From contig JAVZJD010000002.1 of the NCBI GenBank assembly GCA_038870975.1, positions 352,001-416,000 on the forward strand: a stretch of DNA of 64,000 bases. The letters are read 5' to 3'. The translations under genes and the position numbers were made by a program. Source of the stretch: Candidatus Bathyarchaeia archaeon (GTDB lineage: Archaea > Thermoproteota > CALKCG01 > B24). Under the pieces are notes generated by a model. It was not told the origin of the DNA. It saw only the letters and a list, made by a program, of their open reading frames with translations, and did no database searches. Shown here piece after piece: positions 1 through 25,458 of this stretch. How positions within the stretch are numbered: the first letter of the stretch is position 1; every line of letters begins with the position of its first letter.

Positions 1-201
1 GACATCTTTTCCGTCAATGTAGACGCGCCCACTATCTGGCTGTAAAAGCCCTGCTATTATCCTCAGAAGTGTAGATTTTCCACAACCGCTTGGCCCCAAT
101 ATGCATACATACTCACCATCTTTAACTGTTAACGTTATACCCCTGAGGGCATGGATTTCCCCAAACTTCTTATTTACATTTATAAGTTTCACTTCAGGCA
201 T
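1..201 (-). CDS. ABC transporter ATP-binding protein, truncated at window edge
   Basis: Manual translation from ATG at 201: [67 protein letters not shown], with Walker A. The start overlaps the upstream stop (TAATG). Not in the ORF track. Confidence 0.9.
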
Positions 202-1295: not shown

Positions 1296-1324
1296 TTACA
1301 GCTAAAGTAAGTACATAAAAAATA

Positions 1325-8196: not shown

Positions 8197-8580
8197 AATC
8201 TCTATGAAGCCTCTATCAGCATAAACTTTTACAAAGACTCCATTTTTAAACACGTTTTTCTCAGGCTTGTCGACCAAAGGTATGCCTGCAATTATAGCTC
8301 CAACTGCAACTATAGGCTCGGCCTCCATACATATCATCGCCGAAGGAGCCTTCCCTTTCTTAGCTAAACCGTAGATAACGTAAGAGCCTACTGTTGAACC
8401 TCTACCAGCTTGAAAAACTAAGACTCTACCAGTTATAGACTTCCCATAGAGAGAGTGTTTTTCATCACATACCACTCCAGTTGTTCTATCGATTTGACCG
8501 AAGAAGCTTAGAGGCTCAGGAGATACTAGAGCATAACCTTCTCCATATCCTTTAGATATGCTTCTACATCTTATAATCAA
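8188..8580 (-). CDS. Aconitase X swiveling subunit (phosphomevalonate dehydratase small subunit)
   Basis: DUF126-type GRGSTVGSY and EPIVAVGAIIAGIP; next to the AcnX large subunit. Confidence 0.88.
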   Translation of the reverse strand: MIIRCRSISKGYGEGYALVSPEPLSFFGQIDRTTGVVCDEKHSLYGKSITGRVLVFQAGRGSTVGSYVIYGLAKKGKAPSAMICMEAEPIVAVGAIIAGIPLVDKPEKNVFKNGVFVKVYADRGFIEILD

Positions 8581-8585
8581 TTATA

Positions 8586-9782
8586 TCATCCCTCTGTGAC
8601 GGATTCTATGCAGTTTTTAAGATTCCCATAAAAAACGTTTACCTTCGTTAGAAGGCTTGTATAGAATGCAGCTTTAGCACTATCTACGGCAACGTTTTTA
8701 AAACCTAGATCCTTAAGGGGGGCCAAAGCCATACAACAGTCTGTATAGACTTCTCCACCAGCGTTTTTTATGATTCTAAGGAGACCGCATTTTTCAGCTA
8801 GTTTTTTAACACCGATAGATGTGAAAAACCAGATCTTGCAACCCTTCTTTACATGCCTATTCTTTAATATTTTAACAGCATCTTCGAGCTCTGAGAGAGA
8901 CATATGTGGACAGCCTATAGCAACTAGCTCTACAGACCCATTTACCGGTTTAAAATATTCATCGTAGGTCTCTGTTAGGTCTCTACTTGAGAAGTTTAGC
9001 CTTTCTACCTGATCTATCAAGGCATCCTTATACTCAGGTGTAGCCTCTTCAACGTGATATAAAGCAATACTACCTGCAGCTCCTAAACCAGCTCCCAATG
9101 CCTTAAGCTCCTCACTGCGATTGGGTTTTAAACCTCGAAAATATGGAACACCTGAAGTTATGGTCTTACCGACCCAATAGCCGAGAGCACTATAGTCACT
9201 TAAAGTTTCAAGTTTAACATCCACGTTAATCAATACTGTAGCCTTACGGTTCTCATCTAAGTGAAACCCATAATTGGGTGTTTTACCTACTATGGCTGAT
9301 GCTAAAGCTGAAGGCCCTCCTTCTCGATTTGTTCTAGCACCTAAAACTGAGTTTGCAAAGCATACAGCTGAAGATTCAGACCAAGCTATGTGCTCACCAA
9401 ACCTAGGGATTATACCCGCAAGGTAGGGAGTGCAGGAACATATTGGTTTAACTCCCAACCTCGTATATGCTTGTATTATCCTAAATTGCTTAGAAGCATA
9501 CTCCTGAGATACACCCATGTCCATCCAACTTTCAAGGTCTATGCTCGCTGGATTCAGCGTAGCCAACACTGCGACATGACAATTCCCTAGAGATTCAAGC
9601 CACTCTATACCTTCATCTCCCAGAGAAGTGTAGCTTACACCAGCTATTTGAGCTGAGGATATCCGTATTAGTCTGTCCGCACCATAGATGTCGCCTAATG
9701 CTACAACAATTTCCATAGCTTTCTGTTTAGCGTAACCCTCCTCCCCCTTGAGGATACGTTCCTCCTCTTTTGTCAAGTACAA
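8586..9782 (-). CDS. Aconitase X catalytic subunit (phosphomevalonate dehydratase large subunit)
   Basis: CSCTPY, WSESSA, GARTNREGGP, GCPH, DSAKAA. Confidence 0.9.
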   Translation of the reverse strand: MYLTKEEERILKGEEGYAKQKAMEIVVALGDIYGADRLIRISSAQIAGVSYTSLGDEGIEWLESLGNCHVAVLATLNPASIDLESWMDMGVSQEYASKQFRIIQAYTRLGVKPICSCTPYLAGIIPRFGEHIAWSESSAVCFANSVLGARTNREGGPSALASAIVGKTPNYGFHLDENRKATVLINVDVKLETLSDYSALGYWVGKTITSGVPYFRGLKPNRSEELKALGAGLGAAGSIALYHVEEATPEYKDALIDQVERLNFSSRDLTETYDEYFKPVNGSVELVAIGCPHMSLSELEDAVKILKNRHVKKGCKIWFFTSIGVKKLAEKCGLLRIIKNAGGEVYTDCCMALAPLKDLGFKNVAVDSAKAAFYTSLLTKVNVFYGNLKNCIESVTEG

Positions 9783-9785
9783 AGT

Positions 9786-11045
9786 CTAGACAAGCCTCCT
9801 GAAAGAATTTATATCAGCTCCTAGTGGAATGGTAGCATCTACAATCCACTTAGACGTTAGGCCTGTCTTCCCCTGCGATGGATCTAGACTTGAACCCCTA
9901 ACACCTGAAATTATCACAACACCCTTATCTGGTTGCAACCTTGTCGCCAGAGCCCATTCAACATCATTTGGACTCTCGACATCTATATCATCGTCAACTA
10001 CAATAACCATTTTAAGGCTTGGATGGGCCGCTAAGGCTGCTAAACCAGCGTTCTTCCCATCACCTTCGTGCATCTTCTTAATCGCAACAACAGCGTGAAG
10101 CCAACAACAACCACCAGATGTAAGGTGGACACTTTTGACAGTGGGTACAGTGTTTTTAATGATTTTAAGCATTCTAGCCTCTTGTGGAACACCCATTAAG
10201 TGTTTATGCTCTAAACCACCAGGTAAGATCAAATGCCAGATCGGTTCACGTTTCATATAGAGCTTCTCAACTTCTAGGATGGGTTGTTTTCTAACAGCAT
10301 CGATTGTCCCAGTAAGGTCTACAAAGGGTCCTTCGTCAGCCTCTTCATCTTTGAGGATCTTGCCCACCATAACAATTTCTGCCTCAGCTGGTACATCAAG
10401 TCCATCCATGTTTATGCACTGGAATTCATGGAAGACCCTTGCAAGTTGCAACTCATTTAATTCGGGATATGAAGTTGCTGCGGCCATACATATAGTTGGA
10501 TGGACACCTGATACTATAGCGACTTTCGTATCTCTACCCAACTTACGATTGAGAGTATAAAACCTGTATAAATCTCTTGGAACTATCCTTATCGCAAGTT
10601 TGTTTTTCTCCAATAGCATAAGCCTATGGAACGACGCATTCATCCTACCAGTCTCTGGATCCCTTGCTAAGACTATCGTTCCAGTTGCATACCGTCGTCC
10701 AAGACCTCTGTAGAATATCGGAAACGGTAGATGTTTTATGAGATCTGGTTTCTCGTAGACATTTTCCATGAATTCGGCAGAGTCTGTATATTCATAGGAT
10801 TTAGGATGCTCTAGAGCATCAGACCAAGCTTCGTGAAGTTTTTCATATGGTATCTTTATGGCCTTAGATATCATCCTTCTAGAGCTACATAAATTTCCGA
10901 CGACTTTTAAACCTGGATACCCTCTCACTCTTCGAAATACGACTGGGATGTCAGTCTTCGTAAGATATTCTGCAAACCCGTAGTCTGGGTCTACTTCGTC
11001 GTCTATATATACCGCCCCAACTTCTTCCAAAAACTTTCTAAGCAC
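9786..11045 (-). CDS. UbiD-family decarboxylase, likely anhydromevalonate phosphate decarboxylase
   Basis: EGPFVDLTG, VVDDDIDV, VEWALATR, GSSLDPS, DATIP; co-operonic with AcnX. Confidence 0.85.
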   Translation of the reverse strand: MLRKFLEEVGAVYIDDEVDPDYGFAEYLTKTDIPVVFRRVRGYPGLKVVGNLCSSRRMISKAIKIPYEKLHEAWSDALEHPKSYEYTDSAEFMENVYEKPDLIKHLPFPIFYRGLGRRYATGTIVLARDPETGRMNASFHRLMLLEKNKLAIRIVPRDLYRFYTLNRKLGRDTKVAIVSGVHPTICMAAATSYPELNELQLARVFHEFQCINMDGLDVPAEAEIVMVGKILKDEEADEGPFVDLTGTIDAVRKQPILEVEKLYMKREPIWHLILPGGLEHKHLMGVPQEARMLKIIKNTVPTVKSVHLTSGGCCWLHAVVAIKKMHEGDGKNAGLAALAAHPSLKMVIVVDDDIDVESPNDVEWALATRLQPDKGVVIISGVRGSSLDPSQGKTGLTSKWIVDATIPLGADINSFRRLV

Positions 11046-12141
11046 TTTCAGACATCCTCCTTGCCATTGGATAACTCCCCAAAACTTTTAGAAAACTAGC
11101 TCTAACCTCAAGTTCACTTATAGCTTCACGTACATGTGTGTCGTTCCTATGCCCCTCCATATCCATGTAGAATACGTAGTCCCAGGGTTTACCTCTAGTA
11201 GGCCTAGACTCTATCTTAGTCAGATTTACGCCTTTTAAAGCAAACGGCTCTAACGCCTTGTAAAGTGCTCCTGGTTTATTTGGAACGGAAAATATGAGTG
11301 AAGTTTTATCAAAACCAGTAGGAGGGTGCTCTTTTAAACTCAAAATGATGAACCTCGTGTAATTGTCATGGTAGTCTTGTATGGACCTAGCCAAAATATC
11401 CAACCCATATATGGAAGCTGTATACTCTGATGCTATAGCAGCAGCCCCACGCAAGTTCTTTACTATTTCAGCCGCTCTAGAAGTACTGTTCACTTCTACT
11501 ACTTCAGCTTGGGGCACTACTGTTTCAAGAAATGATCTACACTGAGCTATAGCTTGAGGATGTGAAAAGACAACCCTTATATCTTCTATTGTAGAACCTG
11601 CCCCGGCTAGTAAACAGTGATCTATTCTAAGCTCCACCTCACCGTAGATCTTTAGAGGTGTATCCAAGAGAATATCAAGTGTAGTATTCACAGAGCCTTC
11701 GATAGAATTTTCAATAGGGACAATTCCCATGTCTACCTCGCCAGCTTCAACGCTTCGGAAGACTTCACGTATAGTTGATTTAGCTACATACTGTACGTTA
11801 GCTTCATTCATAAACTTTCTAGCAGCCAGTTCTGTAAATGAGCCTTTAGGACCTAAATACGCTATACTGATGTCGCGATAAGAAGACGTTGATAAACCTA
11901 TTATCCTCTTGAAAATCTCCTCAGTAAGAATTGGATCTAGTTCGAGATTTATAGCTTTGGTTCTTACTGTTTCTAGGATTTCCCTCTCGCGTTTAGCATC
12001 CTTAAATGGTAAACTCAATTTCTTCTTAGTTTCCAGAATTCTTTTAACCAGTTCAGACCGTTCCTTTAGAAGCTTAAGCAATTCAAAATCTACTTGATCT
12101 ATACGTTTTCTCAATTCTTCTATTTCCAAGAGAAGTTTCAC
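11038..12141 (-). CDS. pheA: Chorismate mutase / prephenate dehydratase (P-protein)
   Basis: N-terminal CM (LRKRIDQVD), LGPKGSFT, PIENSIEG, SHPQAIAQC, NYTRF, ACT domain KIESRP. Confidence 0.95.
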   Translation of the reverse strand: MKLLLEIEELRKRIDQVDFELLKLLKERSELVKRILETKKKLSLPFKDAKREREILETVRTKAINLELDPILTEEIFKRIIGLSTSSYRDISIAYLGPKGSFTELAARKFMNEANVQYVAKSTIREVFRSVEAGEVDMGIVPIENSIEGSVNTTLDILLDTPLKIYGEVELRIDHCLLAGAGSTIEDIRVVFSHPQAIAQCRSFLETVVPQAEVVEVNSTSRAAEIVKNLRGAAAIASEYTASIYGLDILARSIQDYHDNYTRFIILSLKEHPPTGFDKTSLIFSVPNKPGALYKALEPFALKGVNLTKIESRPTRGKPWDYVFYMDMEGHRNDTHVREAISELEVRASFLKVLGSYPMARRMSESA

Positions 12142-13365: not shown

Positions 13366-14220
13366 TTCAAAATCAGATATCCCGCTCAAGCTGGAGCATT
13401 TTACAGTGGGAGCCGTGACGGACTGATTAAGCAAATAGAAGAGTGTTTTAAGCATAAGCTTGGACCTGGATACCTGCCTAAAGTCAGATCTATTGGTGAA
13501 GGAGAGAGAAAGATCTGTGGATTAGTATCGCCTCACGCAGGGTATATGTATTCTGGACCTGTTGCAGCACATGGATATTGTAAACTTGCTGAGGATGGCA
13601 CCCCCAATGTCTTTGTAATACTGGGCCCCAACCATACTGGATTGGGGAGTGGTATTTCCATATACCCATTTGAGGGAATTTGGAGGACACCGCTTGGAAA
13701 CGTTGAAGTAGATTCTCAAACATGTAAGAAAATAGTTGAAGCTTCAGATTTAATAGATATCGATGAAAGAGCGCATTCATATGAGCATTCAATTGAAGTG
13801 CAGATTCCATTTCTCCAATACCTCTATGGATCTCCCAGAATAGTACCAATATGTATGCTCATGCAAGACCTTGAGACTTCTAGGGAGCTTGGAGAAGCTT
13901 TAGCCACAGCTCTTAAAAATATTGATGCTGTCATAATAGCTTCTACAGATTTAAACCACTACGAGCCTCACGAAAGAACTATTAGGAAAGATAGGCTCGT
14001 CATAGATGCCATTCTTAAAATGGATGAAGAGGCTTTATTTAAAGCCGTAGATGAAGGTGTCAGTATGTGTGGACCTGGCCCTGTAGCCACGATGATCGTA
14101 GCGTTAAAAACACTCGGAAATATTAAAACGACACTTCTAAGCCATAGGACGAGCGGAGATATAACTGGAGACTACTCGGCTGTTGTAGGATATGCTTCCA
14201 TAGTCTTTGAGCGTGTTTAA
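13366..14220 (+). CDS. MEMO1 / AmmeMemoRadiSam protein B family
   Basis: Frame stays open upstream of the track start: KIRYPAQAGAFY...SPHAGYMYSG; also GPNHTG, EHSIEVQIPFLQ, STDLNHY, SMCGPGP, VVGY. Start codon unresolved. Confidence 0.88.
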   Translation, partial: FKIRYPAQAGAFYSGSRDGLIKQIEECFKHKLGPGYLPKVRSIGEGERKICGLVSPHAGYMYSGPVAAHGYCKLAEDGTPNVFVILGPNHTGLGSGISIYPFEGIWRTPLGNVEVDSQTCKKIVEASDLIDIDERAHSYEHSIEVQIPFLQYLYGSPRIVPICMLMQDLETSRELGEALATALKNIDAVIIASTDLNHYEPHERTIRKDRLVIDAILKMDEEALFKAVDEGVSMCGPGPVATMIVALKTLGNIKTTLLSHRTSGDITGDYSAVVGYASIVFERV

Positions 14221-15130
14221 AATGAAAAGCTACTGTAAAGCCTCTGCACCTGGTAAAGTAATACTTTTCGGAGAACACTTCGTGGTGTATGGGGAGCCGG
14301 CTATAGCTGTAGCGATTGACCTTAGAGTTAAAGTAACGGCATATAAGTCTCAAACCACTTTCATTGAAGGCTTTAGAACTACTCTAGTCGATAAGGCACT
14401 AGCCGTCGCCCTAAAAGCTGTAAGCTCGAAGAGAGAGGATGTCCACGTGAAAATAGAGTCTAACTTGCCAATATCGGTTGGGTTAGGTTCTTCAGCAGCT
14501 ACCGCCTCAGCCATCATAGCCGCGATAGCTGGTCTATTCGAAGTTAAACTATCTAAAGATGAACTTTTCAAAATGACCCTAGAATGTGAAAAAACTGTGC
14601 ATGTAAATCCTTCAGGCATAGATCCAGCTGTAGCGGTAAACGGTGGAGCCATACTATATCAACGTGGAGTAGGAGCTAAACCAGTGAAACTATTGGAAGA
14701 TTTTACGCTCGTCGTGGGGAATACTGGAGAAAGGAGATCTACAGGGGTTATGGTTGAAAAGGTTAGAGCTTTTGCTGAGAAGAGGACGGATGTAATGGAG
14801 CGCCTTAGGAAGACCTACTTATCCACTGTTTTAAGAGCATTAAAGGCACTTGAAGAGGGGGATCTTGAAGAATTGGGGTTGCTTATGAATGTAAACCACG
14901 GCCTACTCGAAGCCCTGGGTGTTTCAAATTTCAAACTTAATAAACTCGTGTATGCATCTAGGGAGGCTGGAGCTTTAGGGGCTAAAATGACTGGGGGTGG
15001 AGGAGGAGGATGTATGGTAGCCCTAGTGCCTAAGGAGAGATTAAAATTCGTTGTAGAAGGTATAAAACAGGCTGGAGGAGAACCCATAGTTGCTCCAGTG
15101 TCTAGAATTGGTGTGACTTATGAAGATTGA
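14207..15130 (+). CDS. mvk: Mevalonate kinase
   Basis: APGKVILFGEHFVVYG, PISVGLGSSAA, SGID, KMTGGGGGGC. Confidence 0.95.
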   Translation: MSVFKMKSYCKASAPGKVILFGEHFVVYGEPAIAVAIDLRVKVTAYKSQTTFIEGFRTTLVDKALAVALKAVSSKREDVHVKIESNLPISVGLGSSAATASAIIAAIAGLFEVKLSKDELFKMTLECEKTVHVNPSGIDPAVAVNGGAILYQRGVGAKPVKLLEDFTLVVGNTGERRSTGVMVEKVRAFAEKRTDVMERLRKTYLSTVLRALKALEEGDLEELGLLMNVNHGLLEALGVSNFKLNKLVYASREAGALGAKMTGGGGGGCMVALVPKERLKFVVEGIKQAGGEPIVAPVSRIGVTYED

Positions 15131-15917
15131 GGCTATAATTAAACTCGGCGGTAGTGTTATAACAGTTAAAGACAGGTTTATGGCTGTTAACCGTAAAGCT
15201 TTAAACAGGCTTGCACATGAAATTTCAGCCTCAAGCTTGGAAAGAGTCGTTATAGTGCATGGAGGGGGGTCTTTCGGACATCCCCTAGCTTTAAAATACG
15301 GGTTGAACAAAGAGTTTACAGGGTTGGAAGAACAGATCGCAGGTTTCTCTATAACGCATAGAGCTATGCTTAAACTTAACGAAAAAGTTCTGGAGGCATT
15401 AGAACGTAGGGGTTTAAAAGTTGTTCCCTTACCGCCCATAGCTTTCGCAACACTTGCATTGGGCAATTTAAAAAGTCTCTTCTACGAACCTTTTATCAAT
15501 GCTTTAAAAATGGGTTTAATACCGGTAACATTTGGTGATGTTGCATTCGACCTTTATAGGGGTTTCTCAATAATCTCTGGAGATTTGCTTATGTCTAAGC
15601 TCTCATGTAAACTTAAACCTTTAAAAGCCGTCTTTACAATCGACGTCGATGGATTATATACGGATAACCCTAAGTACAACCCCGAAGCGCAACTTGTAAC
15701 TGAGGCTACGGTTGATGAAGTAGATGCCCTTATAAGGCGATTGAGCTTTAAATCGTCTGATGCTACTGGTGGAATGTGGTTCAAACTCGAACGTGCATGT
15801 GAAATAGCTCGCATGGGTGTGGATGTCTATATAATCAGTGGATTAAAACCCGGGAGGCTTTTTAAAGTTCTTAAGGGTGAGAAAGTTATGGGTACAGTGA
15901 TAAAAGGTGTTCAATAG
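15120..15917 (+). CDS. ipk: Isopentenyl phosphate kinase
   Basis: KLGGSVIT, HGGGSFGH, SGD, DVDG, DATGGM; lies between mvk and fni. Confidence 0.93.
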   Translation: MKIEAIIKLGGSVITVKDRFMAVNRKALNRLAHEISASSLERVVIVHGGGSFGHPLALKYGLNKEFTGLEEQIAGFSITHRAMLKLNEKVLEALERRGLKVVPLPPIAFATLALGNLKSLFYEPFINALKMGLIPVTFGDVAFDLYRGFSIISGDLLMSKLSCKLKPLKAVFTIDVDGLYTDNPKYNPEAQLVTEATVDEVDALIRRLSFKSSDATGGMWFKLERACEIARMGVDVYIISGLKPGRLFKVLKGEKVMGTVIKGVQ

Positions 15918-17011
15918 TGGATTCCATAGGTAGAAGGAAGAACGACCATATACGCATCTGTTCCGAGAAAGAAGTTGAGGCGAAAACAATTACTCCTGGC
16001 TTTGAAAACGTGCACTTAATACATAGATGTATACCAGAAATAGACTTTGAAAAAATAGACCTTTCCGTTAAATTTCTAGGCTTCAATTTTAAAGCTCCAA
16101 TAATGATTTCAGCTATGACTGGCGGAACAGCTGAAGCTACTAAGATAAACGCCAACTTAGCTAAAGCCGCTGGAGAACTTGGGATAGGTATGTGTCTTGG
16201 GAGTGGAAGAGTATGTCTTAAAAATCCAAGTTCCATACAATCTTTTAAGATAGCAAGAGAGAATGCAGAAAAGGCATTTATTTCAGCTAATATAGGTTTT
16301 CAGGAGCTTTTAACACATTCATATGGTGAATTGAAAAAATTGGTTGAAATACTTGATGCAAATGCTCTAACTGTCCATTTAAATCCTCTTCATGAACTCC
16401 TCCAACATGAAGGTTCAGGAATTTTTAAGGGAATTTTGAATAGACTCAGGGAATTGAAATTGAACCTTGAATGCCCTTTGATAGTTAAAGAGGTCGGGTC
16501 CGGTATATGTAGAGAAGACGCTAAACTTTTAGCATCTACGGGTATCGACGCACTTGAAACCTCTGGAGCGGGTGGGACAAGTTGGGCTGGTGTAGAGTAC
16601 TATAGAAACATAGAGGCTGGTGAAGAAGAGAAAGCTGAACTTTCTAAAACCTTCTGGGATTGGGGTATTCCAACGGCTATATCCATACTCGAAGTGAAAT
16701 CTGTTGTAAAATTACCTTTGGTAGCTTCAGGAGGCATTCGGAGCGGTTTAGATGTTGCTAAAGCCTTAGTTTTAGGTGCAGATTTAGCTGGTTTAGCACT
16801 CCCACTACTTAAACCTGCGATAGAAAGTTGGGAGAGTGTTCTGAAAGTCTTAAGAAGAATTCGTGAGGAATTAAAGTTGGCTATGGTTTTAACAGGCTCT
16901 GAGACTATAGAAGAGCTTAAAAGCAGGCCATATGTTTTAACTGGTCTCGTTAGAGACTGGGCTGTATTTAGGAAACTGAAAATTAGGTGTGAAGAATGGC
17001 AAACCTCATGA
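15917..17011 (+). CDS. fni: Type 2 isopentenyl-diphosphate delta-isomerase
   Basis: RKNDHI, SAMTGG, HLNPLHE, KEVGSG, GAGGTSW, WGIPT, SGGIR. Confidence 0.95.
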   Translation: MDSIGRRKNDHIRICSEKEVEAKTITPGFENVHLIHRCIPEIDFEKIDLSVKFLGFNFKAPIMISAMTGGTAEATKINANLAKAAGELGIGMCLGSGRVCLKNPSSIQSFKIARENAEKAFISANIGFQELLTHSYGELKKLVEILDANALTVHLNPLHELLQHEGSGIFKGILNRLRELKLNLECPLIVKEVGSGICREDAKLLASTGIDALETSGAGGTSWAGVEYYRNIEAGEEEKAELSKTFWDWGIPTAISILEVKSVVKLPLVASGGIRSGLDVAKALVLGADLAGLALPLLKPAIESWESVLKVLRRIREELKLAMVLTGSETIEELKSRPYVLTGLVRDWAVFRKLKIRCEEWQTS

Positions 17012-18003
17012 ATGAATTATCCATAATTTCAGAGAAGGTTTCCAGGGAAATCTGTAAGGTTATCGGGGAACTTAACATTCCAGATGCCTTACGCGAATCT
17101 AGTTATCATCTTCTAAAAGCTGGTGGTAAAAGACTTAGACCGTTTGTAATTGTAAAGTCTTATGAAGCATGTGGTGGAACCGGCTCCAAGCCATATCCAG
17201 CCGCTGTGGCAGTTGAAATTCTACACACGTTCACGTTGATTCACGATGATATAATCGACCGTGATGAAACCAGAAGGGGAGTCCCGACTGTTCACATACT
17301 CTGGGGGATTCCACAAGCCATAATATCAGGCGATATGCTCTTCGCATTGGTTTATAAAATTCTTTCTAGAAATATGAGAGCTGAAGGCATTAGAGACTCC
17401 ATTATAGTGGAAGTTATCGAGAGATTTTCCGAAGCTCTGATAGACATCTGTGCGGGACAAACTATGGATATGAAACTGGCTGAGAAGCCAATACGCGGTG
17501 TAACAATTGAGGAGTATATGAGAATGATTAACCTTAAGACGGCTAGACTCTACATGGTTTCCGCAGAAATAGGCGCACTCATAGCTGAGGCTTCTCCAAA
17601 GGAGGTTGAGGCGTTGAGAAACTACGGACTGTATTCTGGTATGGCTTTCCAAATGGTCGACGATATACTTGGGGTTTCAGGCGTCGAAAAAGAGCTTGGC
17701 AAACCTGTCGGAAGCGATATAAGAGAGGGGAAAAAGACCATAGTCGTTCTCGAGGCTTTAAGTAGACTTGATGATTGGGGGAGGCGAAGACTTATGGAGG
17801 TTTTAGGTAGCCGAACTGCTTCTAAAGAGCAGATACTAGAAGCCATAAGACTCATAGAGTCTTCAGGCGCTATAGAGCATGCCAAAAAACTCGCCCATGA
17901 GTATTCTCTAAAGGCAAAAAAAGCCTTAAGTTTACTTCCCAAGACAGAAGCTAGAGACCTTCTAGAAGCTTTAACGGACTTCATAGTTGAACGGAGATAC
18001 TAG
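16996..18003 (+). CDS. Geranylgeranyl diphosphate synthase (polyprenyl synthetase)
   Basis: GGKRLRP, FTLIHDDIID..RRG, GQ, FQMVDDILG, GSDIREGKKT. Confidence 0.93.
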   Translation: MANLMNELSIISEKVSREICKVIGELNIPDALRESSYHLLKAGGKRLRPFVIVKSYEACGGTGSKPYPAAVAVEILHTFTLIHDDIIDRDETRRGVPTVHILWGIPQAIISGDMLFALVYKILSRNMRAEGIRDSIIVEVIERFSEALIDICAGQTMDMKLAEKPIRGVTIEEYMRMINLKTARLYMVSAEIGALIAEASPKEVEALRNYGLYSGMAFQMVDDILGVSGVEKELGKPVGSDIREGKKTIVVLEALSRLDDWGRRRLMEVLGSRTASKEQILEAIRLIESSGAIEHAKKLAHEYSLKAKKALSLLPKTEARDLLEALTDFIVERRY

Positions 18004-18067: not shown

Positions 18068-19351
18068 ATGAGCCTAACACTTAAAAACGGTTTAATAGTT
18101 ACGCCAAGAGGTGTTTTGAAGGGAGACTTAGTTGTTAAAAATGGATATATTAGTAAGATAGGCGGCTCTACTGAGACTGTAGGAGACGTTTTAAATTGCA
18201 ATGGTTGCTATATAGTCCCGGGTTTTAGAGAGCAACACATGCATGACGTCAACGGTTTAACTAAATTTTTGACGGATCCGGGTAGAATAGGATGGGTTTC
18301 TAGGTCATTAGTAGCTCAAGGAGTCACAGCGTTTCACCTAGCTACCATAGCTATGCCGATTGAAGACCTTCTGGAGTACTTAGAGACTTGTAGGCTCTAC
18401 ATGGAGTCCGGTGAGAATGGTGTTGAAGGAGCTAGGTTTGAAGGTGCTTACGTAGAGGGTACCTTCATAAATGTAGAATGTGCAGGTGCTCAACCCAAGG
18501 AATACATAGTTTCCCCGGGTTCTACCGAAGCTAGGGCTATAGTTGATAGTCTTTTGAAGACTGGAGTTGTCAAATTCATGAATATAGTTCCTGATTTCGG
18601 AGTAGACCTTATCAAGTATACGGCTTCTAAAGGTATTATAGTTGGGTGTGGACATACGAAAGCTCCAGCAAAAAAGTTGGAGGAGGCCTTCAATTCTGGT
18701 TTGAAATTCATAGTCCATATAACTAATGGCGCGATGGGGCAATCTTTCAAACCTTTCAACGGTGGTGGAGCATATGAGGCAGCATTAACTCTGCCTGTAT
18801 ATGTGGAGATTATCGTAGACGGCTATCACGTAGATTTTCGCTATGTCTCAGACATTATTGAGAGGAGGATTTCTAAAAATAGATTAAATGAAATTATAGC
18901 TATAACGGATTCTGCTTTTCCGATTAGAGAAGAAGTACCTACAGGAGAATTCAAATTGTTTTCGACGATATGCTGTAAACATCCTATTGAAGATGTTCTA
19001 GTAGTAAAGGGCTATTTTGATAGAGGAGAAGTAAAACCAGCACCTCCAAATACACTTTGTTCAAGTCTACTAACTATGAATAAGGCTTTCAGAAACCTCT
19101 TAAATATGTTTACAGTTAAACATTCAGGCTTCATGATAGACGCCGATTCCAGAAGCCTAGACGAATCCGTGAGACTTACGTCAATGTTTACATCATCCAA
19201 TCAAGCTGAATTAGAGGGGTCGAAAGATAGAGGAATTATTGAAAAGGGAAAAGTTGCTGATTTAACCGTTATAAGGATTGAGGGTGAACCTGGATATTTT
19301 GATGTCGAAATTGAAGCTACAATTGTCGGTGGGAGAATTTTCGAAATATAG
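18068..19351 (+). CDS. Divergent NagA-like amidohydrolase
   Basis: PGFREQHMHD, EGTFIN, GHT, HITN, DGYHV, ITDS, GKVADL. Confidence 0.75.
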   Translation: MSLTLKNGLIVTPRGVLKGDLVVKNGYISKIGGSTETVGDVLNCNGCYIVPGFREQHMHDVNGLTKFLTDPGRIGWVSRSLVAQGVTAFHLATIAMPIEDLLEYLETCRLYMESGENGVEGARFEGAYVEGTFINVECAGAQPKEYIVSPGSTEARAIVDSLLKTGVVKFMNIVPDFGVDLIKYTASKGIIVGCGHTKAPAKKLEEAFNSGLKFIVHITNGAMGQSFKPFNGGGAYEAALTLPVYVEIIVDGYHVDFRYVSDIIERRISKNRLNEIIAITDSAFPIREEVPTGEFKLFSTICCKHPIEDVLVVKGYFDRGEVKPAPPNTLCSSLLTMNKAFRNLLNMFTVKHSGFMIDADSRSLDESVRLTSMFTSSNQAELEGSKDRGIIEKGKVADLTVIRIEGEPGYFDVEIEATIVGGRIFEI

Positions 19352-19408
19352 TTAAAAAAAGAGTTTTATTTTAAGTAGTTTAAATAGATAATCACTTGGC
19401 TGAAAATA

Positions 19409-20170
19409 TTGTCTGCCATTCGTATCAGTCGAATCGTAAGACCAACTGATTTAAGATGCATTTTAGTTGACTGTAGCTACGACATTACTCTTCAGAATTT
19501 AACGTCTCGAGTAAGCATGGATATTATCAAGAAACTAGACGGTTTAATAGTAGCAGATGCAGATGCAGTGGTCAAAAACCTACATATATTTCTGGGTAAA
19601 ACCTCGCCAACTTACATTTTAAGAGTTGAACCTGAAGTTTTAAGGTCTTCAGATCCAAAGGCTAATGTTGAAGAGACTGTTATAAAGGCATTGCAAATGA
19701 ATTTTTCAGCGATTATTTCCACGTTTACAATAGGCTTTGAAGATGAAAGTATAGACTCCAACAACATGAAGCTCATAACGATGCTTTCTGATGTTTGCTA
19801 CGACTATGGATTACCCCTCATAGTCGAATCGATGCCTTTCGGCGAAAGAGTGAGTAGCGAAAACTATGGAGAGAGCGTGGGATTGGCCGCAAGAATGGCT
19901 GAGGAGGTGGGAGCATCCATAGTAGTAGTGCCACCTCTGAAGACGCTTGAAGATTTAAAAAAGGTTAGAGAATCTATTAAAGCTCATATGCTTCTCATAG
20001 ACCCTTCATCTAAGCTCGTAGTTGAAAGAAGTCTTCGAAGTCTTCCAGAGATTTTATCCGATGCCTTTAACATTGGATTAAACGGCATAGTTCTAAGTAG
20101 CTCTCTCGCCCTTAATGAGCCAGCCAAAATTCTATTGGACATACTGTCGACTGTTCACAGTGGAGGTTGA
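19409..20170 (+). CDS. Class I (DhnA-type) aldolase-like protein, probably non-catalytic
   Basis: Colinear with the downstream aldolase (IRISRIV; YGLPLIVESMP; ARMAEEVGA) but active-site motifs are replaced. Confidence 0.65.
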   Translation: MSAIRISRIVRPTDLRCILVDCSYDITLQNLTSRVSMDIIKKLDGLIVADADAVVKNLHIFLGKTSPTYILRVEPEVLRSSDPKANVEETVIKALQMNFSAIISTFTIGFEDESIDSNNMKLITMLSDVCYDYGLPLIVESMPFGERVSSENYGESVGLAARMAEEVGASIVVVPPLKTLEDLKKVRESIKAHMLLIDPSSKLVVERSLRSLPEILSDAFNIGLNGIVLSSSLALNEPAKILLDILSTVHSGG

Positions 20171-20176
20171 TTTGAA

Positions 20177-21403
20177 TTGGGCTTTGGAAAAATAATCAGG
20201 TTAAATCAGATAATAGATCCATCAGATGGTAGGAGCTTGGTCGTAGCGGCAGACCACGGTTTAATGCTTGGACCTATAAAAGGCGTTATTGATTTAGAGG
20301 CGACTCTTCGAAAAGTCATAGCTGGTGGACCAGACGCCATCCTTTTAAGTCCAGGTCAGGCTAGAAGGTTACACCACCTTTTCACTGGTAAGGGTGCGCC
20401 AGCTATGCTTGTTAGAATAGATTGGACTAATGCGTTTAGAGATAAAACGTATACACTACCGGCTAGAAGCATACAATTCAATAGGGTTACCACTGTTAAA
20501 GATGCTGTTAAAATCGGGGCTTCAGGTGTTGTGACATATCTTTTTCTCGGTTTTGATAGAGAGAAAGATCATATGGCGATGGTTGAAGAATTTTCGGCTG
20601 AATGTGAGTATTGGGATATGCCTTTAATTGTAGAGCCACTACCCATGGGTCCTAGAGTCACTAAGGCAAATTATGTTGATATGGTTAAGATGGCTGTTGA
20701 AAAAGCCGTAGAGCTTGGAGCCGATGCGTTAAAGGTTCCGTATACAGGTGACCCATATTCATTCAGGGACATAGTCAAGGTTTCTTCGGGTGTACCAGTC
20801 TTAGTTTTAGGAGGCTATAAGGCGTTGAGTATAAGAGATTCATTAGAGGTTATATCTGAGGTTTTAGAATCAGGCGCCGCTGGAGTAGTTTTCGGTAGGA
20901 ATATTGTTCAAGACCAGAATCCAGATGAGGCCGTTAGACTTATGAAGAGGATAATACATGGAAAGGAGACGGTTACAGACATTCTGAGAGAGAGGATTAA
21001 GCCTCCAGTTAGAATAATAGTCGATGCTGAAAAATGCAGCGGTTGTCGTGTATGTGAAATTGCATGCAGTTTTACTCATGAGAAGGTTTTTGATCCATCG
21101 ATGGCGAGGTTGCGAATTGAAAACTCCAGTACTGGAGTATTATTCACTCCATATGTTTGTACACTATGCTATTCTTGTGTAAACGTCTGTCCGCAGAAGG
21201 CTCTTAAAGTAAACAGCAAAACTGGGGCTGTAGAAGTTTCACCCGAGCTATGTCAAGGTTGCGGAATCTGCGTTGAAACATGTCCGGCTGGAGTTTTAAA
21301 ACTTGTAAATGGAAGGCTCTTCTTATGCGATCTGTGTAACGGTTTACCAGAGTGTGTGAAATGGTGTTCTAGGAATGCTTTAAGGGTAGAAGGAGGCTGG
21401 TAA
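20177..21403 (+). CDS. Class I DhnA/FbaB-type aldolase fused to a C-terminal multi-[4Fe-4S] ferredoxin domain
   Basis: AADHG, ELGADALKVPY (Schiff-base Lys), LGG, GRN; then CSGCRVCEIAC, CTLCYSCVNVCP, CQGCGICVETCP, CDLC...ECVKWC. Confidence 0.88.
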   Translation: MGFGKIIRLNQIIDPSDGRSLVVAADHGLMLGPIKGVIDLEATLRKVIAGGPDAILLSPGQARRLHHLFTGKGAPAMLVRIDWTNAFRDKTYTLPARSIQFNRVTTVKDAVKIGASGVVTYLFLGFDREKDHMAMVEEFSAECEYWDMPLIVEPLPMGPRVTKANYVDMVKMAVEKAVELGADALKVPYTGDPYSFRDIVKVSSGVPVLVLGGYKALSIRDSLEVISEVLESGAAGVVFGRNIVQDQNPDEAVRLMKRIIHGKETVTDILRERIKPPVRIIVDAEKCSGCRVCEIACSFTHEKVFDPSMARLRIENSSTGVLFTPYVCTLCYSCVNVCPQKALKVNSKTGAVEVSPELCQGCGICVETCPAGVLKLVNGRLFLCDLCNGLPECVKWCSRNALRVEGGW

Positions 21404-21404
21404 T

Positions 21405-23231
21405 TTGAGCCTTTCAGGCAAGGGTTATGCAGGAGGCGTAGTTAAGATAGACCTTTCATCTGAGAGAGTGGAGAAAGCAGAATTATCCCAAAGAGACGCA
21501 TTAATGGTTCTGGGAGGGAAGGGTTTAGGTGCTCTCCTACTGTACAATTCTACACCTAAGTATGTAGACCCTTTAAGCCCTGAAAACCCATTAATATTGG
21601 CAACTGGCCCTTTAACTGGGACACTAGCACCTTCAAGCTGTCGTTTCAGCGTTGTAACTAAAAGCCCTCATACGGGTCTCTTCTTAGACTCCAACTGCGG
21701 AGGTTTCTTCGGCGTTGAGCTTAAAAAGGCTGGTTTTGATGTGGTTATAATCACTGGGAAGGCAAGTCAACTATCAATGGTCATTATAGATGATGGAAGG
21801 GTTCGCATAGAGGAAGCTACCGAACTCCGAGGTGCTAAAACCATGGATGCTGAGAAAAAGGTGAAGAAGAGGCTTAATGAGGAGTTTAGAGTTTTAACTA
21901 TAGGCCCAGCTGGTGAAGAATTAGCCCCTATAGCTGGAATTTTCACAGACCTACGTTGTGCCGGTAGAGGTGGAGCTGGAGCCGTCATGGGCTCTAAAAA
22001 CCTTAAAGCTATCGCAGTCAGAGGAAGTAGGCCAATATCCGTCTACGACCCTGAGGGTTTTGAAAAAGCGTGTTGGAGGGCCCATAGAAGGCTTAGAATG
22101 CATGAAGTCACAGCAAGAAGTCTACCGACCTACGGTACAGTCAACATAATTGAGACGATAAATGAGACGGGGGCGTTGCCGACTAGAAACTTTGAAACAG
22201 GTGTATTCTCAGATACTTGGAAAATATCCGGTTACGAGTGGCGTAAACAACTTTGGAAGAGGGATAAAGCCTGTTTCGGATGCCCTATAGCGTGCAGTAA
22301 ACTGGCATATATATCTGATTACGTAGTAGATGGCCCAGACTATGAAACATTATGGGCATTAGGACCATTATGTGGAGTTTCAGACAGAGAAGCTGTAGTT
22401 TACGCTAATTGGCTGTGTGATGCCTATGGTGTAGATACGATAAGCACAGGTGTTATTGTAAGCTTTGTCATGGAGCTGTATGAGAAGAAGTGCATCGGGA
22501 GTGAAGATATAGATGGAATACATGCCGAGTGGGGTAGTAGCGAAGCTCTATTGAAGCTCGTTGAGAAGATTTGTAAAGGTGATGGAGTTGGAAGGGAACT
22601 CAGACTCGGTGTTAGGAAGCTTAGCATTAAATATGGTTGTGAAGATATAGCTATGCACGTTAAAGGTTTGGAAATGCCAGGTTATGAGCCTAGAGCCGCT
22701 AAAGGCATGGGTCTAGGATACGCCACCTCAGATAGAGGCGCGTGCCATTTAAGGGCGTATACAGCCGATAAAGAGCTCTTAGCCTATGGGGGGGCCGTAG
22801 ACCCAGTTAAAATTGATGGAAAAGCGAGGCTCGTAGTAGACTATCAGAATGAAAAGGCTCTCATAGATTCCACAGGTATATGTTTCTTCGCATCTTTTGC
22901 CTTAACATTTAGGGAAATAGGGGATATGTTAACTACGGCTACGGGTTTACCGCTCGAAGACGCTACCACGTTGAAAACTATTGGAGAAAGAGTGTACAAC
23001 CTTACACGTCTTTTCAATGTGAGGGAGGGTATTAAACGGAAAGACGATTCTTTGCCACGTAGGTTTTTAGAAGAGCCTATGCCAGAGGGGCCTGCTAAAG
23101 GCTCTGTAGTAGAATTAAGTAAAATGTTGGATGAATACTACACCTTGCGAGGGTGGGATGAAAATGGCGTGCCAAAAGTTGAAACATTGAGACGGTTAAA
23201 CTTAGATTTAATACTTAACATAGGGAATTAG
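21405..23231 (+). CDS. Aldehyde:ferredoxin oxidoreductase (W/Mo-pterin AOR family)
   Basis: KSPHTG, GRGGAGAVMGSKNLKAI, CFGCPIAC, DYET, GVDTIS, RGACH, YYTLRGWD. Confidence 0.93.
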   Translation: MSLSGKGYAGGVVKIDLSSERVEKAELSQRDALMVLGGKGLGALLLYNSTPKYVDPLSPENPLILATGPLTGTLAPSSCRFSVVTKSPHTGLFLDSNCGGFFGVELKKAGFDVVIITGKASQLSMVIIDDGRVRIEEATELRGAKTMDAEKKVKKRLNEEFRVLTIGPAGEELAPIAGIFTDLRCAGRGGAGAVMGSKNLKAIAVRGSRPISVYDPEGFEKACWRAHRRLRMHEVTARSLPTYGTVNIIETINETGALPTRNFETGVFSDTWKISGYEWRKQLWKRDKACFGCPIACSKLAYISDYVVDGPDYETLWALGPLCGVSDREAVVYANWLCDAYGVDTISTGVIVSFVMELYEKKCIGSEDIDGIHAEWGSSEALLKLVEKICKGDGVGRELRLGVRKLSIKYGCEDIAMHVKGLEMPGYEPRAAKGMGLGYATSDRGACHLRAYTADKELLAYGGAVDPVKIDGKARLVVDYQNEKALIDSTGICFFASFALTFREIGDMLTTATGLPLEDATTLKTIGERVYNLTRLFNVREGIKRKDDSLPRRFLEEPMPEGPAKGSVVELSKMLDEYYTLRGWDENGVPKVETLRRLNLDLILNIGN

Positions 23232-23332
23232 GTAGTCTATTTAGTCTCTGTAAATCTGGTGGAGCGCAGAAGAAGATGAAGTCGGGCTGAATTGCCTTTA
23301 AAATTTAAAGTCAGCTTGAGGAATACTGTTCC

Positions 23333-24847
23333 TTGAAAGATTTGACAAGCTATATAGTTAGCGTAGACATAGGTACGACTAATGTTAAAGCGGTAGCCTT
23401 TGATTTAGAAGGGAGGCAGAAGTCTAAAAGAAGTGTTCGATGTAGAGTGTATTCACCTTTTGAAGGATGGGCTGAACAGAGGGCCGATGAGATTTTAAAC
23501 TCCGTGATCGAGGCTGTGAAGTCATGCGTTAAAGATATCGATGGTATAGTGGAGGCTTTAGCATTTAGCTCCCAATTGTACAGTGTCGCATTCATAGACA
23601 AGGATGGAAATATTTTAAGTCCCATACTGAATTGGATGGATTCCAGAAGCAAAATAGAGGCTTTCGAGCTCTCAGAAGCAATAGGGGGGTATGAAATCTA
23701 CCGTAGGACTGGTTGCCATATCAGCCCCATTATGCCAGCCTCTAAAATCTTATGGTTTAGAAAAAATAACCCTGAAATGTTCAGTAGAGTTTACAAGGTT
23801 CTTTCGATAAAAGACTATGTTCTATACAGGCTTTTAAACGTATATGTTATGGATAAAATACTGGCTTCAGCTACTGCGCTATTCAACATACATAGGGGTA
23901 GATGGGACTCAGAAATAGTTGAAACAATAGGTTTAGACATGGATAAGCTTCCAGAGGTCGTTGAGCCAGAATCCATAGTGGGTCAATTGAAGGGGTTCTA
24001 TGCGGAGAAGATCGGACTTCCCAACGGAACTCCAGTAGTCTGTGGGGGTGGAGACGGTATGCTTCAGAATTTAGGATTGGGGGTTCTGAAAAGTGGTATA
24101 GCGGCTTTAAACATAGGGACAAGTGGTGCAGTTAGAGTATCTTCTAACCGTATAACTCTTGACAAATCGAGAAAAGCAAGGTTTTTCTGCCACAGTTTGG
24201 CTGAGGGATATTGGTGCATAGGTGGTGCTATTAACTCAGCTGGATTATCCTTTGAATGGTTTGCTGAAAACTTCCTCGGTGGAGATTTCAATCGTATTGA
24301 AGTTGAAGCTTCTAAAGCCAAGCCCGGTTCTAATGGTTTAATATTTCTACCGTATCTTTTAGACGAGAGAGCACCGCTTTGGTGCACTGCAGCTAAAGCC
24401 GTTCTATACGGTTTAAGTTTAAAACATAGTCTTTCAGATGTCACTAGAGCCGTCTTAGAAGGTGTTGTATTCGCATTAAACCATATCAGGATTGTTCTTG
24501 AGAAGTATGTCCCTCCAGTAAGGGAAATTAGAGCTGGTGGTGGAGGAGCTAAAATAGACCTTCTAAATCAAATTCAAGCAGACGTTTTTCAAACTCCTGT
24601 CTTCTTAACATCTACTGAAGAAAGCTCTTCTCTAGGTGCAGCTATTCTAGCGGCTAAGACTCTAGGCTATTACGGGAGTTTAAACGATGCATGCAACTCT
24701 ACTGTTAAAATAACTAAAGTATTCAAGCCAATTCCTGAGAACAGTATAGAATACTACAAGCTATTTGAAAAATACTGTAAGATTTCAAACCATTTATACA
24801 AATACTTCTTCAAGCCCTCTGAGAATCTCTACAGTTCTCAGGTTTAA
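23333..24847 (+). CDS. FGGY-family carbohydrate kinase (gluconokinase/xylulokinase-like)
   Basis: DIGTTNVK, NWMDSR, GGGDG, NIGTSG, PYLLDERAP, LEGV, GGGA, SLGAA. Confidence 0.9.
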   Translation: MKDLTSYIVSVDIGTTNVKAVAFDLEGRQKSKRSVRCRVYSPFEGWAEQRADEILNSVIEAVKSCVKDIDGIVEALAFSSQLYSVAFIDKDGNILSPILNWMDSRSKIEAFELSEAIGGYEIYRRTGCHISPIMPASKILWFRKNNPEMFSRVYKVLSIKDYVLYRLLNVYVMDKILASATALFNIHRGRWDSEIVETIGLDMDKLPEVVEPESIVGQLKGFYAEKIGLPNGTPVVCGGGDGMLQNLGLGVLKSGIAALNIGTSGAVRVSSNRITLDKSRKARFFCHSLAEGYWCIGGAINSAGLSFEWFAENFLGGDFNRIEVEASKAKPGSNGLIFLPYLLDERAPLWCTAAKAVLYGLSLKHSLSDVTRAVLEGVVFALNHIRIVLEKYVPPVREIRAGGGGAKIDLLNQIQADVFQTPVFLTSTEESSSLGAAILAAKTLGYYGSLNDACNSTVKITKVFKPIPENSIEYYKLFEKYCKISNHLYKYFFKPSENLYSSQV

Positions 24848-25458
24848 ACCGACATCTCTGGAGGAGGTGTTTTCAACGCTTCCCCTATGGATAAAACTTT
24901 CGATTTCCTAAACCCCACATGTCTCAAAGGAGTGATACGCTTAGCCTCGTTATATATATCGGAGGCTATTTTACCTAAGATCATTTCCTGGACAAACTGG
25001 TCGAAGTTTAAATTCTTAGCCTTTTCTTCAATTATCTTGAACATAAGCATTCTTATGGCCTTCTTCTGAGAGGAGTTTATTCTATGTGCCGTACAAGCTA
25101 TCGGGTAGACTCTTATAAGCGCACCATCTTTAGTTTTGACGTCTATTATAGCGTCTATTTTAGAGCTACCCCTACGTACAAGGCTTCTCAAGAAGTCTCT
25201 AGCGTACTCATGTCCACTGAAGAACGTATCGGCTCTAAGTTCTTTAGTTTCATTTATTCTAAAACGCATTATAATCGTCTGGTGGGCCGGGTCTTGAGTT
25301 AAATCGAAAAGTGTAGCCTCCACTGTTCTACCTACAGGATTCTGGCCCTCCGTAACCGGTATGGATGGTAATTCAACTTCGCCGAAGTATTTAGGCGAAT
25401 AGACTCTATACCAGATTTTAGCTTTCCACTTATCTCTAGCTCGCCGCGTCTTAGACAT
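24844..25458 (-). CDS. rps3ae: 30S ribosomal protein S3Ae (eS1)
   Basis: RDKWKAKIWY, GRTVE, LRSLVRR, ITPLRHVGFRKSK. Confidence 0.96.
   Translation of the reverse strand: MSKTRRARDKWKAKIWYRVYSPKYFGEVELPSIPVTEGQNPVGRTVEATLFDLTQDPAHQTIIMRFRINETKELRADTFFSGHEYARDFLRSLVRRGSSKIDAIIDVKTKDGALIRVYPIACTAHRINSSQKKAIRMLMFKIIEEKAKNLNFDQFVQEMILGKIASDIYNEAKRITPLRHVGFRKSKVLSIGEALKTPPPEMSV

Follow-up and report, generated by a model that had tools for sequence, protein, structure and literature searches.

Three adjacent genes in a stretch of 64,000 nucleotides (nt) from a Candidatus Bathyarchaeia archaeon (contig JAVZJD010000002.1, positions 352,001 to 416,000; the whole stretch is called the window below) encode an aldolase paralog that has lost its active site (AldS), an aldolase fused to a ferredoxin domain with four cluster motifs (AldFd) and the large subunit of an aldehyde ferredoxin oxidoreductase (AOR, here also WorL). 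Sequence comparisons, structure models and scans of other genomes indicated that this unit is a real, conserved variant of the two-subunit tungsten oxidoreductases, with an aldolase in the small subunit and a dead aldolase as third component; as far as we found, it is unpublished. All three genes lie on the + strand, aldS at 19409-20170 (253 amino acids (aa)), aldFd at 20177-21403 (408 aa, TTG start) and the AOR gene at 21405-23231 (608 aa, TTG start), and the list of open reading frames reproduces the gaps of 6 nt and 1 nt given in the preliminary description of this DNA. GGAGG sites resembling Shine-Dalgarno sequences can be read inside the 3' end of aldS (20162-20166, +; 10 nt before the aldFd TTG) and inside the 3' end of aldFd (21392-21396, +; 8 nt before the AOR TTG). 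Because such sites stand 8-10 nt ahead of both internal starts, the three genes look like a single translationally coupled operon, for which the TATA-box-like octamer TTTAAATA at 19379-19386 (+), 23 nt before the aldS start codon, is a possible promoter candidate.

The preliminary description had read the middle gene as a class I aldolase with an intact Schiff-base lysine, joined in frame to a ferredoxin with four cluster motifs, and Pfam, an alignment to MJ0400 and 16 cysteines bear this out. Pfam places a DeoC/LacD aldolase at AldFd residues 22-245 (E 4.9e-34) and several Fer4 families at residues 280-404. The alignment to MJ0400 (PDB 2qjg) reaches residue 273 and that to the small subunit of WOR5 (6x6u_B) begins at residue 272, so the aldolase and cluster domains abut without a linker. 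Residues 1-272 (20177-20992, +) make up the live DhnA-type class I aldolase domain, assigned by Pfam, PDB and fold matches, and residues 273-408 (20993-21403, +) the WorS/AorA-type polyferredoxin domain with its four [4Fe-4S] motifs, assigned by cysteine motifs and PDB matches. An AlphaFold2 model of the fusion (pLDDT 89.1, pTM 0.80) was compared with known structures by Foldseek; the aldolase part matched 2qjg and 1ok6 (TM 0.89 for each) and the cluster part matched 6x6u_B (TMt 0.71, 41% identity).

Contigs from three other hot-spring metagenome studies span this stretch, one of them, of 26,514 nt, covering the whole of 19300-24900, and none has a stop or an indel at the border between aldolase and ferredoxin. 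Within genes these contigs differ from the window by substitutions only, with zero indels; the sole indel is one of 2 nt at 19352, in an intergenic position. None of the 33 listed substitutions creates a stop codon and one is intergenic. Synonymous changes account for 8/8 of the substitutions in the AOR gene, 6/9 in aldFd, 2/5 in aldS and 7/10 in the downstream FGGY kinase gene. The architecture is also common elsewhere. The best 120 of 614 protein matches, which stand for at least 120 protein clusters, all have lengths of 403-440 aa, align over 95-100% of the query and each contain both aldolase and Fer4 families; the sources named among them include Bathyarchaeia (85% identity), Thermoprotei, Brockarchaeota, Asgard lineages and one Calditrichaeota bacterium. 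After clustering at 50%, the best 150 representatives (HMMER) included five full-length fusions and five fragments that cross the junction, and no protein above 437 aa with both domains. Larger fusions with AOR or AldS were not found at E 1e-20 among proteins of 715-2040 aa in a word-index search, which is weak evidence. The fusion is thus real and not an assembly artefact.

The cluster domain is of the AOR small-subunit type, in agreement with the preliminary description. Its 16 cysteines (C287/290/293/297, C328/331/334/338, C359/362/365/369 and C384/387/393/397) are invariant in 16/16 aligned fusions, and its closest PDB sequences are the Fe-S subunits of WOR5 (6x6u_B, E 6e-28; 6x1o_B, 5e-27) and AorA (8c0z_C, 1e-21), followed by 9mqx_E (9e-16). 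The WOR5 and AorA structures are those of small subunits solved in complex with their large subunits. AldFd ends 11 residues past the last cysteine, and its alignment to 8c0z_C stops at residue 165 of the 192 in that chain; AorA's C-terminal helix, of about 20 residues, mediates filament formation (PMC10413684), and by the 8c0z_C alignment this AorA-type filament helix is not present in the fused domain. The genome of the window (G000; other G numbers denote genomes of relatives and L numbers scanned loci) holds six other AOR genes, four with a separate polyferredoxin gene alongside and two with none. No separate small-subunit gene adjoins the AOR gene of the window, which has the fused domain only. 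Since this AOR has no other polyferredoxin alongside, the fused domain would be its small subunit. From the homology to small subunits and from synteny (adjacency and co-descent), we infer that it binds the AOR large subunit as in the solved two-subunit AORs.

The large subunit matches AFOR_N (E 4e-71) and AFOR_C (E 8e-136) and is of the Pyrococcus furiosus AOR and Aromatoleum AorB kind: its PDB matches are P. furiosus AOR (1aor, E 4.7e-154) and AorB (8c0z_A, 1e-140), with WOR5 at only 4e-69. The cysteines C290/293/297/493 are kept in 15/15 AORs linked to a fusion; from the P. furiosus AOR structure we take them to be the ligands of the enzyme's own [4Fe-4S] cluster. In the window AOR, Y452, F495 and F498 align to Tyr468, Phe511 and Phe514 of AorB. 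These aromatic pocket residues are absent from the GAPOR and GOR clades, according to PMC10413684.

The aldolase domain matches 2qjg at the sequence level with E 2e-42, and K186 (codon 20732-20734, +; sixth residue of GADALKVPY) aligns to the Schiff-base Lys184 of MJ0400. The lysine is kept in 15/16 aligned fusions and in 22/30 of a wider set. LsrF, Thermoproteus tenax FBPA and MJ0400 share an Asp base and the phosphate ligands His, Gly-Gly and Gly-Arg (PMC2728841). The corresponding base D26 and the phosphate site made of H27, G212-G213 and G240-R241 are invariant in 16/16 aligned fusions. G000 also encodes a bona fide ADH synthase (349.8 bits; cut-off, 299.45) besides one more DhnA paralog and DERA; as ADH synthase is encoded separately, a housekeeping role of the fusion is excluded and AldFd would be an extra, specialised aldolase. 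Elsewhere in this genome, outside the window, a DhnA-type aldolase frame at G000:C2:549930-550576 is broken by one TGA and may be a pseudogene.

The product of the first gene is a second, weakly recognisable DhnA-type aldolase (Pfam DeoC, E 5.1e-6). Its Schiff-base position is Val (sixth residue of GASIVVVPP), and it has also lost the counterparts of D26/H27, the GG loop and the GR loop. The Schiff-base lysine is missing in 15/15 upstream paralogs of the genome loci and in 12/12 of those from metagenome loci. Judged by these residues, AldS is a catalytically dead paralog of the aldolase and forms part of the unit, a point absent from the preliminary description. This conserved twin makes a clean case of a pseudoenzyme retained as the partner of a live copy.

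Conservation of the unit was followed in genomes and metagenomes. The scan of a genome collection kept 80 loci, 18 of them with a fusion; the remainder were stand-alone small subunits, nearly all adjoining an AOR. L069 was excluded from the counts as degenerate or unfused, and L109, which is on the same contig as L019, was counted once. An AOR lies immediately 3' of the fusion in 14/14 assessable loci of this collection (four fusion loci end too early to show the downstream gene), in 6/6 loci of relatives and in 12/12 metagenome loci, so the adjacency first noted for the window is general. The dead paralog adjoins the fusion in 17/17 assessable genome loci, upstream in 16 and behind the AOR in one (L002). 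Full-length fusions were found in 10/41 genomes of relatives, G000 included, and in 7/7 other genomes of the window's family, two of which have a second copy; the complete triple was present in 6/6 loci fetched from relatives, second copies included. A metagenome scan seeded with unfused relatives yielded 12 further triples among 80 loci. Altogether, the whole triple of aldS, aldFd and AOR occurs in the window and in 32 other loci from archaea and bacteria, among which genome records and metagenome contigs may overlap. By record name the lineages are hot-spring Bathyarchaeia, Hadarchaeota, Asgard archaea, Chloroflexota, Bacteroidota/Ignavibacteriota and others.

Phylogenies indicated a common descent of the three genes. 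In a tree of 65 AORs, the fusion-linked AORs (15/15) form one clade (SH-aLRT 100) within a larger, starred clade of 35 AORs, beside Peptococcaceae and Pseudomonadota groups with a separate ferredoxin; the bacterial fusion-linked AORs are nested (97) among the archaeal ones in this tree, which has a midpoint root only. In the tree of aldolase domains, the AldS-type sequences (18/18) form one clade (93) next to the fused aldolases, on branches several times longer, and the two groups together stand apart from three stand-alone DhnA aldolases with a support of 98. Groups of the Ignavibacteriota/Bacteroidota type and of the Chloroflexota type recur in the trees of the fused aldolases, of AldS and of AOR. 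From the matching topologies it follows that the duplication behind aldS dates back as far as the module itself and that all three genes have travelled together between domains of life. In the excluded Chloroflexia locus (L069:6001-7519), a PfkB kinase gene is followed by two aldolase-like pieces that are not in the same frame; neither a ferredoxin domain nor an AOR was found within 6 kb of these pieces, and the locus may be a decayed or unfused form.

We consider it probable that a heteromeric aldolase core carries AOR through the fused domain, cleaves a ketose phosphate to dihydroxyacetone phosphate (DHAP) and an aldehyde, and passes the electrons of the aldehyde to ferredoxin. This reading extends that of the preliminary description, in which the fusion ties the aldolase to the AOR for direct oxidation of the aldehyde, and which our analysis partly supports. 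AOR would dock on the C-terminal four-cluster domain of AldFd, and the AldFd aldolase domain and AldS would form a hetero-oligomer, as DhnA aldolases do. The XylB-like FGGY kinase would probably make the ketose phosphate, which the live aldolase domain would split through a Schiff base at K186. The released aldehyde would be handed over to AOR and converted to the acid at the presumed tungsten site, and ferredoxin would receive two electrons by way of five clusters, first the [4Fe-4S] cluster within the AOR and then the four of the fused domain. Cleavage, oxidation and electron flow are proposed in this direction on the basis of the known chemistry of both families. A particular architecture can also be imagined: a hetero-decameric ring resembling the D5 decamers of solved relatives, with live and dead subunits five each, in which every live subunit would bear a rigid four-cluster arm with an AOR, AldS would make room for these arms by cutting their number by half, the whole particle would be of ~0.7 MDa and the aldehyde would never leave it. 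We regard a ring of this stoichiometry as unlikely; if true, it would add a sixth structural class to the tungsten oxidoreductases, with the aldolase core replacing the filament helix in assembly.

Several observations weigh against a coupled cleavage and oxidation by this unit. The position of the catalytic Tyr153 of MJ0400, which T. tenax FBPA also has, is Leu155 in AldFd and one of L, I, M or V in every fusion examined. A glutamate two residues before it, E153, is invariant in 22/22 Lys-type fusions and may take over the role of the tyrosine. The domain also scores below every NCBIfam equivalog cut-off (ADH_synth, 177 against 299.45; Fbpase1_Arch, 155.7 against 430; LsrF PRK08227, 95.6 against 297). 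With the tyrosine replaced and these scores below their cut-offs, the chemistry may differ from that of known members. The AorB pocket Tyr is kept in only 4/15 fusion-linked AORs. Flanking genes are lineage-specific and point to sugar use but to no single pathway. Small contigs of one RNA library map to aldS, aldFd, the AOR gene and the kinase gene, one of them (20823-21024) crossing the domain border at ~20993; with DNA carry-over possible in the library, they are a hint of expression only.

The pairing of AldS with the live aldolase domain, the less certain of the two proposed contacts, received weak support from modelling. The predicted complex of AldS with AldFd residues 1-272 scored 0.57, the best of 3 controls scoring 0.00, and the model runs agreed in at least 98% of contacts, with a pLDDT of at least 87 for the partner. 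In the benchmark, whose counts hold only roughly here because our own alignments were used as input, the score mark was reached by 116/157 solved complexes and 2/215 mismatched pairs, and scores of 0.60 or less were those of only 18 of the 157 solved complexes plus both passing mismatches. Because homodecamers of the DhnA family are solved, the pass of AldS with the aldolase domain may reflect likeness to them.

A further point against general aldol cleavage comes from one subclade of fusions, 8/30 of those examined, in which Glu replaces the Schiff-base Lys; the copy in the window is of the Lys type. These Glu-type fusions (L111:7787-8605, L113:2357-3175 (-), L123:3255-4073, L124:6004-6813, L125:5998-6816, L127:5929-6747, L128:6004-6822 and protein P0064) carry the changes K186E, E153T, P154V and G28N. 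Their Asp, His, Gly-Gly and Gly-Arg residues are retained, as is the neighbouring AOR, and their AldS-type partners are also without Lys. In two genomes belonging to the genus of the window, the Glu-type fusion occurs as a second copy, at L111 and L113. The subclade implies that aldol cleavage does not by itself account for all members of the family and that the module can persist without a canonical class I site. Judged by their residues, Glu-type modules form no canonical Schiff base and may catalyse a different reaction or do no more than bind a phosphorylated ligand.

The Glu-type fusions, with lysine lost and phosphate-binding residues retained, bear on the possibility that the aldolase-like proteins are a scaffold only, serving a two-subunit AOR mainly as a ligand sensor or as a hub for oligomerisation, with cleavage uncoupled from oxidation. 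AldS is dead at every locus examined, as would fit such a hub, and a fused domain without the AorA filament helix (PMC10413684) would need other means of assembly. A pure scaffold should, however, not need the Lys, Asp, His, Gly-Gly and Gly-Arg residues, all of which are kept in 22/30 fusions from archaea and bacteria, the window included, and the dead copy AldS shows how such a site decays once it is unneeded. We therefore judge a role as scaffold alone to be quite unlikely.

The kinship of both enzymes also bears on a glycolytic short-cut, for which we see a slim chance. The aldolase would split fructose 1,6-bisphosphate (FBP) and AOR would oxidise glyceraldehyde 3-phosphate, like GAPOR or the two-subunit bacterial GOR. 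The nearest solved relatives of the aldolase (2qjg, 1ok4) bind or cleave FBP, a two-subunit WorLS enzyme that oxidises glyceraldehyde 3-phosphate is known (CbGOR; PMC13328260), and none of G000's six other AORs came out as a GAPOR equivalog at E 1e-20. The AOR of the unit, however, is nearest to P. furiosus AOR and AorB, reaches 57.1 bits against a GAPOR_Arch cut-off of 1300 and retains the pocket residues Y452, F495 and F498 that the GAPOR and GOR clades are described as lacking; the aldolase stays as far below the cut-off for archaeal class I FBP aldolase as given above. The module is patchy among relatives' genomes, and GAPDH is present in G000.

The unit could also run in reverse, for biosynthesis, with AOR reducing a carboxylic acid at the expense of reduced ferredoxin and the aldolase condensing the aldehyde with DHAP or a related donor to a sugar phosphate. 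ADH synthase, the nearest characterised relative of the aldolase, is a condensing enzyme, and AORs can reduce acids with low-potential donors (PMC9295118). This direction is less likely again, given that the neighbours of the module are mostly catabolic (glycoside hydrolases, kinases, permeases), that G000 has its own ADH synthase and that the thermodynamics of acid reduction are unfavourable. Mere co-expression, with the fused domain as a general ferredoxin module and the AOR consuming free aldehydes from the cell pool with no physical link to the aldolase, would suit the broad-range aldehyde scavengers described in this AOR clade (PMC13328260), but it is very improbable for a cluster domain specifically of the AOR small-subunit kind, beside an AOR that has no other small-subunit gene and belongs to a single clade always adjacent to the fusion.

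If a coupled aldolase and AOR is the right reading, the neighbouring genes may hold clues to the substrate. An FGGY-family sugar kinase is encoded 101 nt downstream of the AOR gene, at 23333-24847 (+; 504 aa, FGGY_N and FGGY_C), with NCBIfam scores of 357.3 bits for XylB (cut-off 380.25) and 372.5 for gntK (cut-off 648.55). Besides the window, where its product would probably supply the phosphorylated substrate, G001, G003, L011, L014 and L124 also have an FGGY kinase gene next to the module. Among unfused DhnA aldolases from metagenomes (L136-L195), a XylB-like FGGY kinase gene is directly downstream in 39/59 assessable loci (for example L140:6004-8297 and L172:6001-8262), so the pairing of kinase and aldolase is typical of the wider unfused DhnA group. 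As both proteins score below all NCBIfam equivalog cut-offs, the unfused aldolase and its kinase appear to be a widespread uncharacterised pair.

At the module's other end, 57 nt upstream, a NagA-like amidohydrolase is encoded at 18068-19351 (+; 427 aa), with an HxH motif at residue 57 and an NCBIfam nagA score of 123.1 bits against a cut-off of 225.65. A true NagA (302.6 bits against the same cut-off) lies 35 kb away at 54719-55918 (+), so the NagA-like gene is a paralog, possibly with another substrate. Together with the FGGY kinase gene it is syntenic in G001 and G003, of the same genus, where the NagA-like identity is 79-80%, and it was not found next to the module in the other loci scanned. 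An amino-sugar route through this gene was rejected as a general one, the gene being kept only within the genus.

Glycoside hydrolases are encoded near the module in several loci (GH42 in L111, L123 and L125; GH116 in L120; GH38 in L125; GHL10 in L003; a melibiase in L004), GH38 also adjoining the unfused L126 and L069. Several loci also have xylose-isomerase-like barrels, and L019 a sulfatase. Four Chloroflexota loci have a TauE/SafE-family membrane protein directly after AOR (L008:9114-9857, L012:5437-6213, L013:9114-9857, L017:9113-9856) and a LarA-like gene of the lactate racemase family directly before the dead aldolase (L008:3893-5164, L012:177-1562, L013:3886-5208, L017:3831-5111); UPF0261 and PEP-hydrolase-like genes were also seen near the module in these four. 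A DUF6785/DUF6784 protein of ~680 aa with ~11 hydrophobic segments, which may be a transporter, is encoded beside the module in six archaeal loci (L108:11074-13107, L111:4874-6913, L113:4042-5427, L123:370-2400, L127:2853-4907 and 9604-11637, L128:2868-4892). Small proteins with 5-6 hydrophobic segments are encoded directly behind AOR at L004:5178-5801 and L005:9064-9741; the two share homology (34% identity, E 4e-29), do not resemble TauE and matched no Pfam family.

Given the kinship of the AOR, a non-phosphorylated aldehyde (lactaldehyde, glycolaldehyde, glyceraldehyde or acetaldehyde) is more likely than glyceraldehyde 3-phosphate. Individual routes were weighed as follows. WOR5 is linked to sulfonates. 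A sulfoquinovose route, with a sulfofructose-phosphate aldolase and oxidation of sulfolactaldehyde, was kept as one candidate, although the AOR is not of the WOR5 kind and TauE was found only in the 4 Chloroflexota loci; a joint mention of sulfolactaldehyde and AOR was not found in a literature search. For lactaldehyde, a possible route, LarA-like genes in the same 4 loci and a lactate permease in L108 stand against a kinase that is XylB-like and not fuculokinase- or rhamnulokinase-like. An inositol-type route through a Cgl0159-like family was dropped, as Pfam gave only 23-35 bits, secondary to DeoC. The pocket residues of AOR, tried as an indicator of substrate, gave no clear signal across the linked AORs.

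Two other groups of genes in the window were seen. An ABC ATPase and a double permease of 570 aa, encoded at 201-3037 (-), resemble tungstate (WtpB/WtpC), molybdate and sulfate systems with scores below cut-offs; as G000 has seven AOR-family genes, they may be relevant. The second group, at 8188-11045 (-) and 14207-18003 (+), includes genes for a DUF126 protein, an aconitase-X-like protein and a UbiD-family decarboxylase. Genes nearby look, to our eye, like those for mevalonate kinase, isopentenyl phosphate kinase, IDI type 2 and a prenyl diphosphate synthase, and we presume that this neighbourhood resembles the archaeal mevalonate pathway.

A literature search found no paper describing a fusion of an aldolase and a polyferredoxin, consistent with the statement in the preliminary description that no characterised example was known. 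The words "aldolase" and "fusion" do not occur in the main text of the 2026 classification of tungsten oxidoreductases into five classes (PMC13328260), nor in that of the Wolframiiraptor paper (PMC9246946). A physiological role has been defined for an enzyme in only five of 92 tungsten oxidoreductase clades (PMC13328260). Here the genome itself indicates the upstream enzyme of an AOR: the covalent link between aldolase and electron-transfer subunit means that one can search for this AOR clade's natural aldehyde through the cleavage reaction of the aldolase. The unit could be a common route by which anaerobes gain low-potential electrons from the aldehyde half of a sugar.

Each part of the unit has counterparts in known systems. 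With the DhnA aldolases MJ0400 (2qjg), T. tenax FBPA (1ojx) and Escherichia coli LsrF (3gkf), all of them decamers (PMC2728841), the aldolase part shares the TIM barrel, the Schiff-base Lys, the Asp base and the phosphate site. It differs from them in Leu155 at the place of the catalytic Tyr, in E153, in its sub-cut-off scores, in the fused redox domain and in its pairing with a dead paralog. AorABC of Aromatoleum aromaticum (8c0z) has a related large subunit with the same aromatic pocket, and AorA is homologous to the fused domain. Unlike in AorABC, a gene for an FAD/NAD subunit was not found beside the module in the window (Pfam, NCBIfam), and unlike AorA the fused domain has no filament helix, so that oligomerisation would come from the aldolase part. 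The class II tungsten oxidoreductases made of WorL and WorS (WOR5/ASOR, 6x1o and 6x6u; Caldicellulosiruptor bescii GOR) resemble the unit in having a large subunit of the AOR family and a small subunit with four [4Fe-4S] clusters encoded next to it, with ferredoxin as the presumed acceptor. Compared with WOR5, the large subunit described here is nearer to P. furiosus AOR; compared with the class as a whole, the unit has its small subunit as the C-terminal part of an aldolase protein and a dead aldolase as third protein.

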